Part shown: positions 3,207-39,898 of the stretch, in pieces
Layout of the letters: each line of letters starts with the position of its first letter
Position numbering within the stretch: position 1 is the stretch's first letter
DNA from: Patescibacteria group bacterium
GTDB lineage: Bacteria > Patescibacteriota > Patescibacteriia > UBA1558 > GWA2-36-10
DNA: 64,000 nucleotides
Assembly (NCBI GenBank): GCA_018819405.1
Contig: JAHJQF010000001.1
Coordinates: forward strand, 371,277 to 435,276
Direction of reading: 5' to 3'
The notes under the pieces: model-generated
The model's input: only the letters and a program-made list of their open reading frames with translations
What the model was told of the DNA's origin: nothing
Database searches by the model: none
Made by a program: the position numbers and the translations under genes

Positions 3207-3659
3207 ATGAAAATTATTAGCCCAGCTTTTGGTCATATGACTTCTATGCCGGCCAAGTATACTTGCGATGGTAAAAACATCAATCCGCCTTTGGAGTTTG
3301 TGGATGTGCCTCAAGAAGCCAAAAGTTTGACTCTTATTATGGATGATCCAGATGCTCTCAAGCCGGCTGGGCGAGTTTGGGATCATTGGTTGGTGTGGAA
3401 TATGCCTAGTGTTACTAGAGTTATTGCGGAAAACACACAGCCAGCCGGCGTAGTAGGGCCAAACACTAGGGGTAATCACGCTTATAGAGGGCCTTGTCCG
3501 CCAGATGGTGAGCATAGATATATTTTCAAACTTTACGCTCTAGACGTTGAACTGGATATTGATGGAGAAAGTAACAAGCATGAGCTGGAATCGGCTATGA
3601 GTGGCCATATTTTGGCTCAGGCGGAACTAATTGGCCTATATAATAGGGAAAATTACTAA
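3207..3659 (+). CDS. YbhB/YbcL family phosphatidylethanolamine-binding protein (PEBP / Raf kinase inhibitor-like)
   Basis: Characteristic PEBP motifs DDPDA, WxHW, GPCPPxGxHRYxFxLYALD. Confidence 0.8.
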   Translation: MKIISPAFGHMTSMPAKYTCDGKNINPPLEFVDVPQEAKSLTLIMDDPDALKPAGRVWDHWLVWNMPSVTRVIAENTQPAGVVGPNTRGNHAYRGPCPPDGEHRYIFKLYALDVELDIDGESNKHELESAMSGHILAQAELIGLYNRENY

Positions 3660-27161: not shown

Positions 27162-28853
27162 ATGAAAGATTTATTGAAATCCCCTTGGGTATTAATCATT
27201 GTTATATTTTTTGGAGCTTTGCTCCGTTTTTGGAATATTTTGGCTAATGATATTACCAATGATTTGTCTATCAATGCTTTTAGGGCCTATGGCTGGCTAG
27301 ATTTTTTAGTAGGTGATGGTCAGACTTCGCCGATTGTTTGGTTTGGTTTTAGGCCTTGGTGGAGCCTATTGTCTTTTCATGATTTACCGCCTTTGATAAT
27401 GGCTATCCAATATTTATCTATAAAACTAATTGGGCCAAGCTCATTGGGTGTTTTATTCCCTTTTTTATTATCGTCTATATTAGTAACATTTTTTCTTTAT
27501 TATTTCCTAAAGAAAACAGCTAACCAGAGTATAGCTATCATAGCCAGCTTGATATTTTCTATTTCTTCATATAGTGTTTGGGCAGCTCGTACAGGATATT
27601 TGGAAGGGGCAGAAGTTTTATTTATTATTTTAGCTTTTTTCTTATTCATTTTATTCATAAAAACTAAGAAAAATAAACATTTTTATCTATTTTCTATATT
27701 TATAGCTTTGGCTATATTATCAAAATACACCTCTATATTTCTTATTCCTTCAGCTTTGGCTTATCTGGTCATATTTGAAAGAAAAATTTTTAAAAATAAA
27801 CATTTTTATTTGGCTATATTATCAGGTCTGATATTACTAACCCCAATAATTATTTATAATATTTTTGTTTTTAAAACAAAGGGGCATTTTGACGCGGCTT
27901 TATCATCAATGGTCGGTATGCATCCTCAGGATTATGATGTGATAGCTGAGCGGGGGGTCAATGCTAGTATTTTGAAAAATTTAGGTTCGATCATGGTGGT
28001 TATATTTCGAAGCAGTTCCCTGCCTTTGGTCTTGGTCTACGCTTTGTCTTTCATATTTTTACTAATTAAAGTTACCAGAAGGCAAACAAGGTATTGGCAG
28101 AATTTTTTGGCTATAAATATAGTGATGATAATTCTCATGTTTTCTTTTTCCGGAGCACCGCCTAGATTACTTTCTATAATTAATCCTTTTTTGGCAATCT
28201 TAGCCGCTTGGTTTTTATATAGATTATTTATTTTGGTAAGAAATAAGAAATTTTTAAACTATTTTCTAATATTTATTTTTATTATATTTGCTTTAGCAGA
28301 GATTTTTTATAATATAAATACCAATGTGTTGAGAAAACCAGTTGGACCTTTGTGGCTGACTTATTCTGGGTACCGTTTTTATAATCGAGGTTTTATAGAG
28401 CTAGAAAAATATATTAAAGAAAATATTTATATAAGTAATAAAAAAGTCAAGCTAGATACCTATAAAGACTTGCGGTCTGTTAGTCTGGAGGGAAATAAAA
28501 TAATGCTTTTTGATGAAAGGCTGGATTGGTTTGCTAGAGTCTGGTATATCAATCGTTACATGTTATATTATAAGGCGCCTTTATTTTATTTTCAGGACAT
28601 TGAGCCGGCTATGAAGCAGGCGGGAGTATCTGATGTATTTGCTTATTTCAATAAATTTTTGGATATCAATGAGTTTTATTTTGTTTATGTCATAGATGAC
28701 GAATCTCGTAGTAATAAAAGTCAAAATTATATTGATCAAATGAATCTGATAAAAGATAATTTGGAAAAAAGTGGTATTAATCCTGATAGAGAAATTAAAG
28801 ATTATAAAGGTGAGGTTATTTATAAAATTTACCATTTTTATATAAACAACTAA
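27162..28853 (+). CDS. GT-C fold glycosyltransferase-like polytopic membrane protein (PMT_2/ArnT-like), tentative
   Basis: More than 10 TM helices with an N-terminal periplasmic-loop architecture like ArnT/PMT enzymes. Weaker match than 4697..6178. Confidence 0.45.
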   Translation: MKDLLKSPWVLIIVIFFGALLRFWNILANDITNDLSINAFRAYGWLDFLVGDGQTSPIVWFGFRPWWSLLSFHDLPPLIMAIQYLSIKLIGPSSLGVLFPFLLSSILVTFFLYYFLKKTANQSIAIIASLIFSISSYSVWAARTGYLEGAEVLFIILAFFLFILFIKTKKNKHFYLFSIFIALAILSKYTSIFLIPSALAYLVIFERKIFKNKHFYLAILSGLILLTPIIIYNIFVFKTKGHFDAALSSMVGMHPQDYDVIAERGVNASILKNLGSIMVVIFRSSSLPLVLVYALSFIFLLIKVTRRQTRYWQNFLAINIVMIILMFSFSGAPPRLLSIINPFLAILAAWFLYRLFILVRNKKFLNYFLIFIFIIFALAEIFYNINTNVLRKPVGPLWLTYSGYRFYNRGFIELEKYIKENIYISNKKVKLDTYKDLRSVSLEGNKIMLFDERLDWFARVWYINRYMLYYKAPLFYFQDIEPAMKQAGVSDVFAYFNKFLDINEFYFVYVIDDESRSNKSQNYIDQMNLIKDNLEKSGINPDREIKDYKGEVIYKIYHFYINN

Positions 28854-29057
28854 AAAATTTGACATAAGTCAAACTATAATATATACATACAGTATAGGGT
28901 TATTTGAAAACCTTAGATTCTCTTCAGCGCACTTAGCTGGAGTTTTTTCAAACTAGAGTGCCCTGGAGAGAATAAACTTGGGCAATTTGATGGCCTGCGA
29001 GGATAGTCGAATCTTCAAAAATATTCTCCCAGGCTTTGTAGCCTAAACGACAAAAAT

Positions 29058-29237
29058 ATGTTCCGTGCTTTGTATGGATTTTTCAACTTCATATTTTTGA
29101 TCATCTTGTTCAAGATGTTTGCTCCAGGAATTTACCAGTTAGTCATACAGCTTTTCACCACCATCTTGGTGATGGCTAATGATACAGCCAGCGCGATGGC
29201 TACTGGAGCTCCTTACGAATTTCCAAATGGTATCTAA
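29058..29237 (+). CDS. 59-aa two-TM hydrophobic peptide (below ORF-track threshold) in a GC-rich patch
   Basis: MFRALYGFFNFIFLIILFKMFAPGIYQLVIQLFTTILVMANDTASAMATGAPYEFPNGI. ~200-nt structured leader downstream of ttgaca...tataat (28861-28884). Terminator at 29265..29291. Confidence 0.3.
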   Translation: MFRALYGFFNFIFLIILFKMFAPGIYQLVIQLFTTILVMANDTASAMATGAPYEFPNGI

Positions 29238-29264
29238 GATACTGTTTGGAAACCCCATTTCCAA

Positions 29265-29291
29265 GGACTGGCTCACGCCGGTCCTTTTTTT
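29265..29291 (+). terminator. Rho-independent terminator (plus strand)
   Basis: ggactggctcacgccggtcc followed by ttttttt. Confidence 0.6.
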
Positions 29292-29307
29292 GAACAAAAA
29301 AAATGAG

Positions 29308-29332
29308 CCGGGTGACCCTAGGGTCACCCGGC
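29308..29332 (-). terminator. Strong rho-independent terminator (minus strand; palindromic)
   Basis: gccgggtgaccc tag ggtcacccggc perfect 11-bp stem; T-run on minus strand (A-run 29296-29303 on plus). Confidence 0.8.
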
Positions 29333-29524
29333 ACAGCCACACATGGAGTTGACAAACATGGCCAGCTCCAGATCGTGCTCTTCAAAGAGCTCGTCGCCTA
29401 CTAGGATGTACCAACTCTGGCCACCGTCGAAAGAGTAGCCATCAAAGTGGATGCCAGCTCCCAGGTTCCAGCGACTCGGTTTCTCTATAATGTTGAGGTA
29501 GAGGAGCAGGAAGTTCTCGTTCAT
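29324..29524 (-). CDS. Hypothetical 66-aa protein with strong SD, 5'-UTR hairpin and dedicated terminator, ~55% GC
   Basis: SD ggaaagga 5 nt before the ATG. Stop TGA embedded in the terminator stem. Upstream 10-bp IR gctgagctaa/ttagctcagc (29577-29620). Confidence 0.4.
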   Translation of the reverse strand: MNENFLLLYLNIIEKPSRWNLGAGIHFDGYSFDGGQSWYILVGDELFEEHDLELAMFVNSMCGCAG

Positions 29525-29671
29525 AGCTGTCCTTTCCAGAAGAGTAGTGTTGGTTGGTTTTTTAGCTTTTGCTGAGCTAAGTGGAATATACTGGAAGATG
29601 CTATTTAGCTCAGCTTAATATTTATTGATTTATTTGTCAATAATCATATTTATTGCTAAGATGACACTATT

Positions 29672-30517
29672 ATGAAAAAATATTTTTTAATTATACTAGT
29701 AGCTTTGGCGTTGATAGCATTTGGCATTTGGTATTATTGGGATAAGTCCAAAGAAAATATTGATTTGGATTTACCTCCAGCGCAGACTTATAAAGATTTT
29801 AAAAATTTGGCTGAACAAAATCCAACTAATAATGAGAGTGTTGATAATTTTCAACCAGAGGAGCTAATTGTCAATAACAACACCAATGAAGTTGTAGAAC
29901 AGCCCGAAAAACCAGACTTGACGGATAATCAAAATCAAAATCCCTTGCCTGTAACCAGCATAAATCTGAATGTGCCTTTTACTTCTCAAGCGCCGACTGC
30001 CAATTGGGAACAACCTTTTCAGGATGCTTGTGAAGAAGCGGCAATACTAATGGCTGATTATTATGTGCAAGGAAAGTCCATGCCGTCAGTTACGGAAGTA
30101 GAAAATATTTTAAAAGATATGATTGATTGGCAGAGCCAAAATATGGACGGGGAAATAGACATGGATATTTCAGAATTGGCTTATTTTGCCAAAAATTATT
30201 TGGGTTATGAAAAATACGAAATAGTAGAGGATTTGAGCGTAGAAAAAATCATCAGTTATTTGAATAGGGGATTGCCATTGGTTGTTCCTGCCAATGGCAA
30301 GTTATTGGACAATCCCAATTTTAGCAACGGCGGGCCGGTCTATCATATGTTGGTTATAAAGGGTTATAAAGACGGACATTTTATCACCAACGATCCTGGT
30401 ACCAGACTAGGTCATAATTTTATTTATACTTTTGAAAATATGCTTTATTCCATTGCCGACTGGGATGCAAAAACGGGCCAGGCAACTGGTCCGAAAAGGG
30501 CTTTAGTTATTTATTGA
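29672..30517 (+). CDS. Membrane-anchored Peptidase_C39_2 (YvpB-like) domain protein, tentative
   Basis: N-terminal TM helix, low-complexity linker, then VPFTSQAPTANWEQPFQDACEEAAILMADYY resembling the C39-like peptidase family start with catalytic Cys. Confidence 0.5.
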   Translation: MKKYFLIILVALALIAFGIWYYWDKSKENIDLDLPPAQTYKDFKNLAEQNPTNNESVDNFQPEELIVNNNTNEVVEQPEKPDLTDNQNQNPLPVTSINLNVPFTSQAPTANWEQPFQDACEEAAILMADYYVQGKSMPSVTEVENILKDMIDWQSQNMDGEIDMDISELAYFAKNYLGYEKYEIVEDLSVEKIISYLNRGLPLVVPANGKLLDNPNFSNGGPVYHMLVIKGYKDGHFITNDPGTRLGHNFIYTFENMLYSIADWDAKTGQATGPKRALVIY

Positions 30518-39763: not shown

Positions 39764-39840
39764 TCGTCCTGTAGCTCAGCTGGTTAGAGCACCACTCTTA
39801 TAAAGTGGGGGTCCTGGGTTCAAGTCCCAGCAGGACGACC
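39764..39840 (+). tRNA. tRNA-Ile with anticodon UAU (reads AUA)
   Basis: Manual fold: acceptor cgtcctg/caggacg with one G-U, D-arm gctc/gagc, anticodon stem ccact/agtgg with loop cttataa (anticodon TAT), T-arm ctggg-ttcaagt-cccag, discriminator A, encoded CCA. Confidence 0.8.
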
Positions 39841-39898
39841 AGATTGACATTTTATCCACTATTTGCTATATTTCTATCGTTAAATTTATTATCAAGAT

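Follow-up and report, generated by a model that had tools for sequence, protein, structure and literature searches.

The locus and its 59-residue protein

The stretch of DNA examined here (hereafter the window) comprises 64,000 nucleotides (nt) of contig JAHJQF010000001.1 from a Patescibacteria group bacterium (assembly GCA_018819405.1), and our concern is the short interval within it that separates the gene for a PMT_2 glycosyltransferase from that for a C39-like peptidase. The locus comprises two unrelated small genes that are transcribed convergently: one encodes a membrane protein of 59 amino acids (aa) and is preceded by a long leader, and the other encodes a soluble protein of 66 aa. A first-pass annotation had described both, each with a terminator, and both were found as described. 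It had further likened the first to type I toxin mRNAs (hok/fst-like), whose leaders occlude translation. In this report, we propose from comparative and folding analyses that the leader probably folds onto the start of its own open reading frame (ORF) and controls production of the protein. The two genes had also been taken to share a GC content of 50-55%, which holds for the 66-aa gene (52.7%) but not for the 59-aa ORF with its leader (40.0%); the terminator stretch stands at 48.8% and the window as a whole at 36.7%.

The 59-aa protein is predicted by AlphaFold2 (predicted local distance difference test score, pLDDT, 78) to form helices at residues 2-21 and 23-49, with the break between them at a conserved Pro-Gly. 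Using the neighbouring C39-like protein as a handle, we retrieved 32 loci from species-representative genomes, the best matches to this handle being labelled Parcubacteria or Komeilibacteria. The small protein is present in 10 of these 32 genomes that carry the C39 homologue (tblastn), and positions 28959-29135 of the window, which run from the leader into the first 26 codons, are conserved as DNA in nine of the 32 loci (blastn). A search with a back-translated pattern supplied 25 further loci on metagenome contigs. Protein homologues were found in 34 loci (consensus MFRALYGFFNLIFLLILFKMFAPG...), and the comparative counts given below rest on 30 distinct Komeilibacteria-like Parcubacteria sequences.

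In these 30 sequences, the entropies at the first, second and third codon positions are 0.83, 0.30 and 1.37, respectively. All 30 keep the frame of the ORF open, whereas stops interrupt each of the other frames in 29-30 of them; arginine is encoded by CGY or AGA depending on the locus, and a length of 52-61 aa is held despite a divergent C-terminus. Because of the codon-position entropies and the single open frame, we regard the ORF as coding; as far as comparison of sequences can, these features prove it to be protein-coding and under purifying selection, not a non-coding RNA. The contrary proposal, that the ORF is spurious and that the whole of 28890-29290 is a non-coding RNA, could draw on the strong folding z-score of the stretch (see below) and on the gene caller of the Logan assembly, which called nothing here. 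It is ruled out by the codon-position and frame statistics, and the preserved length also speaks against it; we give it practically no credence. The first-pass annotation had reasoned that conserved nucleotides around unconserved ORFs would point to an RNA; instead, both ORFs are conserved as proteins.

A letter-identical copy of the stretch lies on Logan contig SRR6514730_11182. That assembly's gene caller placed zero genes in the 818-bp gap at L001 9183-10000 (window 28854-29671), in which GenBank annotates both. One of two gene callers thus missed both small genes, and genes of this size are easily lost from metagenome annotation.

The 59-aa protein has no match in Pfam, NCBIfam or PADLOC at curated cut-offs. 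A HMMER scan of 1.84 billion representatives returned only eight matches, two of which were spurious hits inside long proteins, and a word-indexed protein search recovered both small proteins only as the GenBank hypotheticals, together with two relatives of the 59-aa protein. The relatives in protein databases are presumably so few because such ORFs are rarely called, and further ones had to be sought in DNA. No second copy of the gene was found in the window, and no match was found in phage, plasmid or viral collections. Its setting is well preserved: in nearly all loci, the end of comM lies ~210 nt 5' of the ATG and the C39-like gene lies 280-1190 nt 3' of the ORF.

The unit has its own transcription signals. 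Most of the 30 loci have a -35/-10 pair at a spacing of 16-18 nt, located 27-30 nt from helix P1 (described below); the family form is TTGAC(A/T), 17 nt, TATA(A/T)(A/G). From this element, we infer a transcription start near 28894 and, with TATACA as the -10 box, a leader of ~165 nt. The first-pass annotation had instead paired the same TTGACA with a TATAAT at 28875-28880, which is only 10 nt away and thus lacks promoter spacing, and its leader of ~200 nt is shortened accordingly. The -10 boxes of the 30 loci (TATAAG, TATATA, TATAAA, TATACA) mostly do not end in the T of TATAAT, and many are preceded by TGn, as in extended -10 elements. At the other end, a terminator of the type GGACC..GGTCC-TTTTCTTTT is found 45-85 nt past the stop in every homologue examined. 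Given its own promoter, its own terminator and its fixed synteny, the 59-aa unit appears to be monocistronic and, judging from these features of the sequence, is a vertically inherited gene specific to a clade of Komeilibacteria-like Parcubacteria.

Structure of the leader and the start of the ORF

Folding of 28885-29300, a check that the first-pass annotation had proposed, gave -144 kcal/mol in RNAfold, with z = -7.7 against dinucleotide shuffles; the likely transcript, 28894-29292, has z = -7.0. The structure of the stretch is well beyond chance; in sliding windows, the leader and both terminators account for the excess, to which the interior of the 66-aa ORF does not contribute. When a covariance model was made from the 30 leaders, each locus, the window included, gave exactly one full-length match (72-147 bits), and the fetched loci without the small ORF gave none. 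When the window was compared with Rfam 15 (4227 families), only five tRNAs passed the gathering thresholds, and the best matches over 28700-29700 were noise at E <= 10, none of them scoring above 22 bits where the thresholds are 35-98 bits. Known non-coding RNAs (transfer-messenger RNA, RNase P, 6S, signal recognition particle RNA and the riboswitch classes) are ruled out by Rfam and ARAGORN, and our search of the literature found no description of the leader motif.

The alignment of the 30 leaders reveals a series of conserved strands. Strand A (AUUCUCUYCAG) and strand B (CUGRAGAGAAU) are followed by a post-B segment, AUCUUGGAC, and then by a small hairpin, P2. On the 3' side of P2 come strand D (GGGAYGAAUA), the trinucleotide GUC, strand E (the 3' strand of helix P3) and strand C (UAUUCUCCYAGGC), and the leader ends with CUUGMAG, CUAAU, CAA and the AUG. 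The GUC (29006-29008) is invariant in all 30 leaders and lies between D and E, inside the conserved AAUAGUCGA.

Two kinds of evidence bear on the pairing of these strands: covariation in the alignment, and an alignment-free duplex test in which the energy of each strand with its own partner is compared with that obtained using the partner strand from sequences of <80% leader identity. Overall, seven helix sets are better as cognates, and four negative controls are not; the controls A:C and E:C, for example, have no cognate difference. The strongest case is P1, the long hairpin formed by A and B. Here, 94% of alignment cells are paired, compared with 40-52% in slid controls; 7 of 12 pairs have changed on both sides, one of them occurring as UA13/CG9/GC6/UG2; and 0 of 500 shuffles reach the observed values. 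RNAalifold predicts this helix on an unfitted alignment, and the A:B cognate advantage is 4.8 kcal/mol, seen in 30/30 loci. On this comparative record, P1 is real beyond doubt. In the window (28922-28948) and in locus L034, the upper part of P1 can refold into a short hairpin with T6-T7 that resembles a terminator (28922-28942 plus T6 in the window); the T-run is missing in most homologues.

The second long helix, P4 (D:C), belongs to the window's minimum-energy fold, where its apical loop holds the invariant GTC. D:C duplexes have energies of -10 to -20 kcal/mol in 28 of the 30 loci, with a cognate advantage of 4.1 kcal/mol (29/30). At its centre, 82% of cells are paired and six of nine pairs have double-sided changes, although the alignment used had been fitted to the competing P3. 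Further, the loop of P2 co-varies with the CUUGMAG after C, which lengthens P4 (1.7 kcal/mol, 22/30).

Other helices compete with these. P3, the local hairpin D:E, has a cognate advantage of 2.65 kcal/mol (26/30); its 5' strand is also that of P4, so that only one of the two can form at a time. P2 has double-sided changes in every pair and an advantage of 1.2 kcal/mol (25/30). Finally, B can pair with C. This is the long-range pair recognised in the first-pass annotation, cctggagagaata (28962-28974) with tattctcccagg (29022-29033), and the two are indeed complementary; in the family, 88% of B:C cells are paired, mostly via sequence conservation, and the cognate advantage is 1.7 kcal/mol (22/30).

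When leaders were folded together with the first 90 nt of the ORF, two further helices emerged, P6 and P7, in which the leader pairs with codons. P6 in the window, written as RNA, joins CAAAAAUAUG (29051-29060, that is, -7 to +3) to CAUAUUUUUG (29090-29099). Across the family it extends over -17 to +3, including the AUG, and involves codons 10-16, with a duplex in 26 of the 30 loci. On an unfitted MAFFT alignment, 71% of cells are paired versus 36-56% in slid controls, and two pairs vary as CG11/AU8 and AU9/GC8. The leader variants AUCAACA, AUAAGCA and UAAUCA are matched by the ORF variants UGUUGAU, UGCUUAU and UGAUUA, respectively, and the cognate advantage of 2.2 kcal/mol (25/30) compares with 0.4 for a control segment of the ORF.

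P7 would join the post-B segment to codons 17-21 (AAUAUCUUGGACA with UGUUCAAGAUGUU in the family, 8-13 bp). The duplex has an energy of -9.2 kcal/mol in the window and of -9 to -15 kcal/mol in 25 of the 30 loci, and its eight core pairs are retained in 23-25 of 25 anchored sequences. The pair at the third base of codon 17 (Leu17) occurs as CG14/UA7/UG2, and in locus L048 a change of AAG to AAA is compensated by one of CUUGG to UUUGG. TTC AAG (Phe18, Lys19) has the lowest third-position entropies in the ORF after the ATG (0.4 and 0.6). P7 would account for this low synonymous variation and for the DNA-level conservation that reaches into the ORF. Taken together, covariation and the cognate duplex test support P1, P4, P6 and P7, whose positions are given with those of the other features in the table.

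Several other pairings and one reading frame were considered and set aside. P5, in which the CUUGG after P1 pairs with the CUAA before the ATG, appears in some minimum-energy folds, the window's included; at -0.1 kcal/mol (14/30) and 76% paired, it is not a feature of the family. Pairing of the post-C CUUGAA with the UUCAAG of the ORF is weak (-0.4 kcal/mol), and P7 is the better account of UUCAAG. The ttgaaaac (28904) and gttttttcaa (28942) that the first-pass annotation had paired are both present, but they are part of no helix conserved in the family. A TTG-started frame of 10 codons in the leader, a candidate leader peptide, is, by eye, not kept in relatives.

Features of the locus (window coordinates unless a locus is named; helices, promoter and terminators are predictions)
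Feature	Position	Strand	Details
PMT_2 glycosyltransferase gene	27162-28853	+	upstream neighbour of leader
Promoter of 59-aa gene	-35 TTGACA 28859-28864; -10 TATACA 28882-28887	+	17-nt spacer; positionally conserved in relatives
Conserved leader RNA motif	28903-29063	+	covariance model 110 bits, E = 1e-23
P1, long hairpin	A ATTCTCTTCAG 28917-28927; B CTGGAGAGAAT 28963-28973	+	covariation, RNAalifold, duplex test
P7, 5' strand	CTTGGGC 28977-28983	+	right after P1; pairs with codons 17-19
P4, second long helix	D GGCCTGCGAGGATA 28992-29005; C TATTCTCCCAGGCT 29022-29035	+	minimum-energy fold, covariation
P3, alternative local hairpin	GAGGAT / ATCTTC 28999-29016	+	double-sided changes in all 5 modelled pairs
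P6	CAAAAATATG 29051-29060, including ATG; CATATTTTTG 29090-29099, codons 11-14	+	10 bp, perfect; minimum-energy fold of the window
59-aa two-helix membrane protein	29058-29237	+	GenBank MBU1202811.1, KKH39_02080, hypothetical protein
P7, 3' strand	GTTCAAG 29108-29114, codons 17-19	+	pairing and synonymous-site conservation
Intrinsic terminator of 59-aa gene	29263-29293 (stem 29263-29286)	+	10-bp stem, then T-run
Intrinsic terminator of 66-aa gene	29297-29332 (stem 29332-29307)	-	11-bp stem, 9 G-C, then T-run
66-aa soluble protein	29324-29524	-	GenBank MBU1202812.1, KKH39_02085; ends SMCGCAG
5' untranslated hairpin of 66-aa gene	29571-29587 / 29598-29614	-	17-nt arms, 82% complementary, perfect 10-bp core
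C39-like peptidase gene	29672-30517	+	PF13529 Peptidase_C39_2, E = 7e-11
66-aa homologues	L040 3259-3477; L049 294-554; L004 1763-2044; L002 958-1206		

Possible roles of the leader

Among the 48 long ORFs of the window, only six have a motif resembling a Shine-Dalgarno (SD) sequence at -20 to -4, and upstream regions are A/T-rich. The organism thus seems to start translation largely without SD pairing, and the lack of such a sequence ahead of the 59-aa ORF is normal in this light. Initiation that does not depend on an SD sequence relies on an open, unstructured start region. The mean probability of being unpaired over -18 to +11 is 0.27 for the 59-aa gene versus 0.50 +/- 0.11 for 45 other genes of the window, making this start region the second least accessible among the 46; the mean for the homologues is 0.35. 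Given the scarcity of SD sequences, initiation should need an unstructured start, and the fold would therefore be expected to hold translation low. In this respect, the occluding leader envisaged in the first-pass annotation has fared well, in the form of co-varying helices that bury the AUG and of low accessibility; the further step to a toxin-antitoxin system has not, no antisense promoter or complementary RNA having come to light in the searches described below.

The comparative evidence indicates that the ~165-nt leader and the first 63 nt of the coding sequence fold as one. In a first state, P1, P4, P6 and P7 would coexist, with P7 closing a junction around P4 and P6 and with the AUG buried; this state is predicted to be the more stable by 10-20 kcal/mol. 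In a second state, B:C, P2 and P3 would form a three-way junction. The two are incompatible as modelled: P7 cannot form once P2 has claimed its GGAC, P4 loses its 5' strand to P3, and B:C uses up one strand each of P1 and P4. Since both sets of helices co-vary, both are likely to be under selection. This suggests that the RNA either switches between locked and open forms or passes through ordered folding intermediates, with P2 and P3 being displaced later. Opening might be triggered by temperature, by a small ligand or a protein, or by processing at the 5' end. The best explanation, and one that we favour with some reserve, is therefore a vertically inherited, monocistronic gene for a small membrane protein with a self-locking and possibly switching leader.

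Several observations weigh against this explanation. When strand A was blocked or removed in silico, the start region stayed shut (0.35 to 0.37); the proposed switch is thus not reproduced by thermodynamics alone, and a simple opening by 5' processing is not supported. The window's own minimum-energy fold lacks P7, whose strands are taken up by a local hairpin (ATCTTGTTCAAGAT) and by a different partner of the 5' strand, and P6 and/or P7 are weak in L056, L058, L036 and (P7 only) L034. The invariant GUC is explained by none of the tested helices; a tertiary contact, recognition by a protein or cleavage might underlie its conservation. As for the statistics, the 30 sequences are related, such that p-values of the duplex test are inflated; at several covarying positions, the changes go back to two or three independent events; the alignment used to count P2, P3 and P4 had been fitted by a covariance model; and the RNAalifold consensus recovers P1 only. 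Further, the function, the 5' end and the effect on translation are all inferred from comparison of sequences and from predicted folds.

Could the structure be genuine and yet have no part in gating translation? It might stabilise or direct processing of the mRNA, or constitute a separate small RNA, with the low accessibility being incidental. P1 is near the 5' end, as stabilising hairpins are, its top is terminator-like in the window and in L034, and the accessibility of the start region is unchanged between the modelled states. However, P6 and P7 use the AUG and coding nucleotides and constrain synonymous sites, which stability alone hardly explains, and the terminator-like top of P1 is missing in most homologues. 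We judge this account to be quite improbable.

The resemblance to a type I toxin mRNA deserves a fuller discussion. Under such a scheme, the 59-aa protein would be a membrane toxin made from a self-locked mRNA, with an antisense or trans-acting small RNA as an undetected antitoxin. The peptide is suitably small (<60 aa) and hydrophobic, with two predicted helices; the 5' untranslated region (UTR) is long and structured, with a start region that appears to be buried and with mutually exclusive conserved helices; the gene is monocistronic, with its own promoter and terminator; and the published toxin mRNAs zorO, aapA and timP behave alike. Yet the antitoxin is hard to place. The search for an antisense promoter that the first-pass annotation had called for, made with consensus-based scans, found none on the minus strand at 28900-29300 of the window, and none that is positionally conserved in the 30 loci; the TTCAAG of the ORF, considered as an antisense -35 box, has no -10 at a suitable spacing. 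Complementarity elsewhere is at most 13 nt in the 64-kb window of a ~1-Mb genome. The convergent transcript ends short of the ORF, and many loci are without any convergent gene; and since comM stops ~210 nt short of the ATG, a divergent small RNA would not fit. The gene is also single-copy in the window and sits in a fixed comM-C39 slot in nearly all relatives, with no match in phages, plasmids or viral contigs, versus the patchy, multi-copy or mobile distribution that is typical of type I systems. It has no PADLOC match, and its two helices set it apart from most type I toxins, which have a single one. Given the lack of an RNA antitoxin, the single copy and the synteny, the locus should not be filed as a toxin-antitoxin system, an identity that we hold to be unlikely, even though its workings resemble those of type I toxin mRNAs by analogy.

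The analogies are nonetheless instructive. In hok mRNA, long-range pairings keep the message for a small membrane protein untranslated, and here, too, a long-range pairing would close such an mRNA; the overlapping mok frame, 3' processing, Sok antisense RNA and plasmid-borne or multi-copy occurrence of hok have no counterpart seen here. The case of zorO is close as well: it encodes a small hydrophobic protein on a monocistronic message, and its leader of ~170 nt is reported to hinder its own ORF independently of a small RNA, the full-length UTR of 174 nt doing so until it is processed (PMC5397157). However, the UTR of zorO base-pairs with a divergently encoded small-RNA antitoxin, OrzO, and the message becomes active on 5' processing; the window gene has no small RNA that we could find, is not known to be processed, has two helices and is syntenic across its clade. 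In Helicobacter pylori, expression of aapA1 and aapA3 depends on the folding of their mRNAs, with a locked full-length form and with hairpins that are metastable yet functional (PMC5416894, PMC6733600). Similarly, the window leader would be governed by its folding, and covariation is seen in its short-range hairpins, P2 and P3, as well as in P4 and P7, the long-range helices that would displace these. In aapA, hairpins hide the SD sequence, the 5' and 3' ends pair as a lock, and there is an antisense RNA, IsoA; the window leader has no SD sequence, would be locked by pairing to codons 10-21, and has no antisense RNA that our scans could reveal. A structural switch has likewise been described for timP (PMC13000454).

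A different view is that the leader is a new riboswitch, in which the junction of B:C, P2 and P3, together with the loop AAUAGUCGA, binds a small molecule or an ion. The ligand would pull strands from P1, P4 and P7 and thus open the start codon, and the protein would handle the ligand. As in three-way-junction translational riboswitches, exclusive helices co-vary, nucleotides of loops and junctions are highly conserved (the invariant GUC included), and access to the start codon would be at stake; the 5' UTR as a whole has a conserved structured domain backed by covariation, although the link from its two helix sets to expression is putative. The leader contains neither an SD sequence nor a terminator, so control by a riboswitch would be translational. 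Small membrane proteins under riboswitch control are known, including some that are reported to be regulated by a cyclic di-GMP riboswitch (bioRxiv 10.64898/2026.06.10.731418). Against this view, the locked fold lies 10-20 kcal/mol below the junction fold, a large gap for a ligand to bridge, and B:C is the weakest-supported helix (1.7 kcal/mol, 22/30). Unlike known riboswitches of this type, the motif has no Rfam match, and its association with one gene family of unknown function gives no pointer to a ligand. Strand A, further, lies 5' of the putative aptamer with which it competes and would be the first to pair as the RNA is made, an order that is unusual among riboswitches. This view is equally open and equally unproven when set beside the toxin-antitoxin scheme, and the odds are well against it. 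A broader formulation would have the locus as a new kind of Patescibacteria RNA switch, either a ligand-sensing junction (B:C, P2 and P3, with the GUC loop) or an antitoxin-free lock, opened by processing, on a membrane-active peptide, in both cases with control of translation by pairing of the leader to codons 10-21 and without an SD sequence; this we regard as a speculative possibility, on the doubtful side.

Returning to the self-locking leader that we favour, a structured leader that gates translation of a small membrane protein is of a known kind. What is unlike that kind is the absence of an SD sequence and of an antitoxin, together with pairing of the leader to the ORF accompanied by selection on synonymous sites. 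The ~230 nt of conserved mRNA structure and the family of small membrane proteins are new, neither being present in the libraries searched. Gene regulation in the Patescibacteria, with their tiny genomes and few recognisable regulators, is almost unstudied. A core, syntenic small gene whose mRNA has ~230 nt of co-varying structure and selected synonymous sites implies tight post-transcriptional control, and it provides a defined RNA for the study of start gating in bacteria that lack SD sequences. If the peptide were toxic, or if the junction bound a ligand, this would be, to our knowledge, the first such system described in Patescibacteria.

The 66-residue gene and its surroundings

The convergent 66-aa ORF is, on the comparative evidence, a real gene that belongs to a variable set of GC-rich small genes. 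Homologues of 72-93 aa are found in L002, L004, L040 and L049. In each case, the gene runs in the opposite direction to that of the membrane protein, and the proteins share the core N(L/F)G(A/G)G(I/V)..(D/P)(G/A).S.D(G/E)G.(S/T)WY, with NLGAGI.FDG.S.DGG.SWY as its form. The protein has only sub-threshold matches in Pfam, NCBIfam and PADLOC (BNR at 14.8 bits against a cut-off of 27, and bacilliredoxin at 14.5 against 100), and a single-sequence structure model (pLDDT 42) is too poor for use. The GC fraction of the gene is 0.53 and that at third codon positions (GC3) is 0.70; in the family, GC3 is 0.54-0.77 amid loci of 36-44% GC. The PMT_2 and C39-like genes of the window have a GC3 of ~0.3, and minus-strand membrane-protein genes beside the 66-aa family are also GC-richer. 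With a folding z-score of ~0 over the 66-aa ORF, RNA structure is no explanation for its high GC3; repeated transfer of a small-gene cassette and an unusual codon constraint are possibilities.

Two other identities for the 66-aa ORF were rejected. That it is a relic of a phytoene-desaturase-like gene was suggested by a chance-level match to a segment of L028 (E = 0.01); it has no support in Pfam, and the short family is conserved as such. A bacteriocin precursor of the double-glycine type, processed by the C39-like peptidase, would have an N-terminal leader ending in GG/GA ahead of its core peptide, and its C39 domain would be fused to an ABC exporter. This identity is inconsistent with conservation of the middle of the protein (..GAGI.FDG.S.DGG.SWY) and variability of its C-terminus; further, the neighbour is no such ATP-binding cassette (ABC) exporter, and most of the peptidase loci are without a 66-aa gene.

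The terminator stem of this gene holds the stop codon TGA and the last codons (..CGCAG*), and the same is true in L040 (~3255-3290, ..AAGLA*). Because of this overlap, the GC-rich hairpin dictates the C-terminus of the 66-aa protein. At the other end, the AAGGA sequence that the first-pass annotation had identified as an SD sequence is present 5 nt before the ATG (TCCTT, 29530-29534), although it carries little weight given the rarity of such motifs (6/48). The inverted repeat of 10 bp also reported there proved to be the perfect core of a longer hairpin, spanning 29571-29614, which is probably at or near the 5' end of the mRNA: transcription from a weak minus-strand element, TTGACA-17-TAAGCT (29640-29612), would begin there. 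Relatives do not share this hairpin, the homologue being the second gene of a pair in L040, L049 and L004.

As to the neighbours, the interval between the small ORF and the peptidase gene is variable, and the small minus-strand genes in it are GC-richer than their genomes. The C39-like peptidase predicted downstream in the first-pass annotation is borne out; the gene product stands alone as a PF13529 protein, carries a membrane anchor at its N-terminus and is not an ABC exporter. The PMT_2 gene lies between comM and the leader in the window only, comM abutting the promoter in the other loci examined; L056 has a PMT_2 homologue on the downstream side of the small ORF. A local rearrangement or insertion seems to have taken place. 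Elsewhere in the window, ARAGORN identifies a tRNA-Ile with the anticodon TAT (UAU) at 39765-39841 on the plus strand. Such a tRNA is uncommon in bacteria, in which AUA is usually read by a lysidine-modified CAT tRNA, and from its presence the genome may be without TilS. Finally, a promoter-like element, TTGTCA-17-TAAGAT (29634-29672, plus strand), ends only 10 nt ahead of the C39-like ATG, and the mRNA of that gene may therefore be leaderless or nearly so. On the minus strand, the same hexamer (TTGACA, 29640-29635) is a possible -35 box of the 66-aa gene, and the two could form back-to-back divergent promoters.

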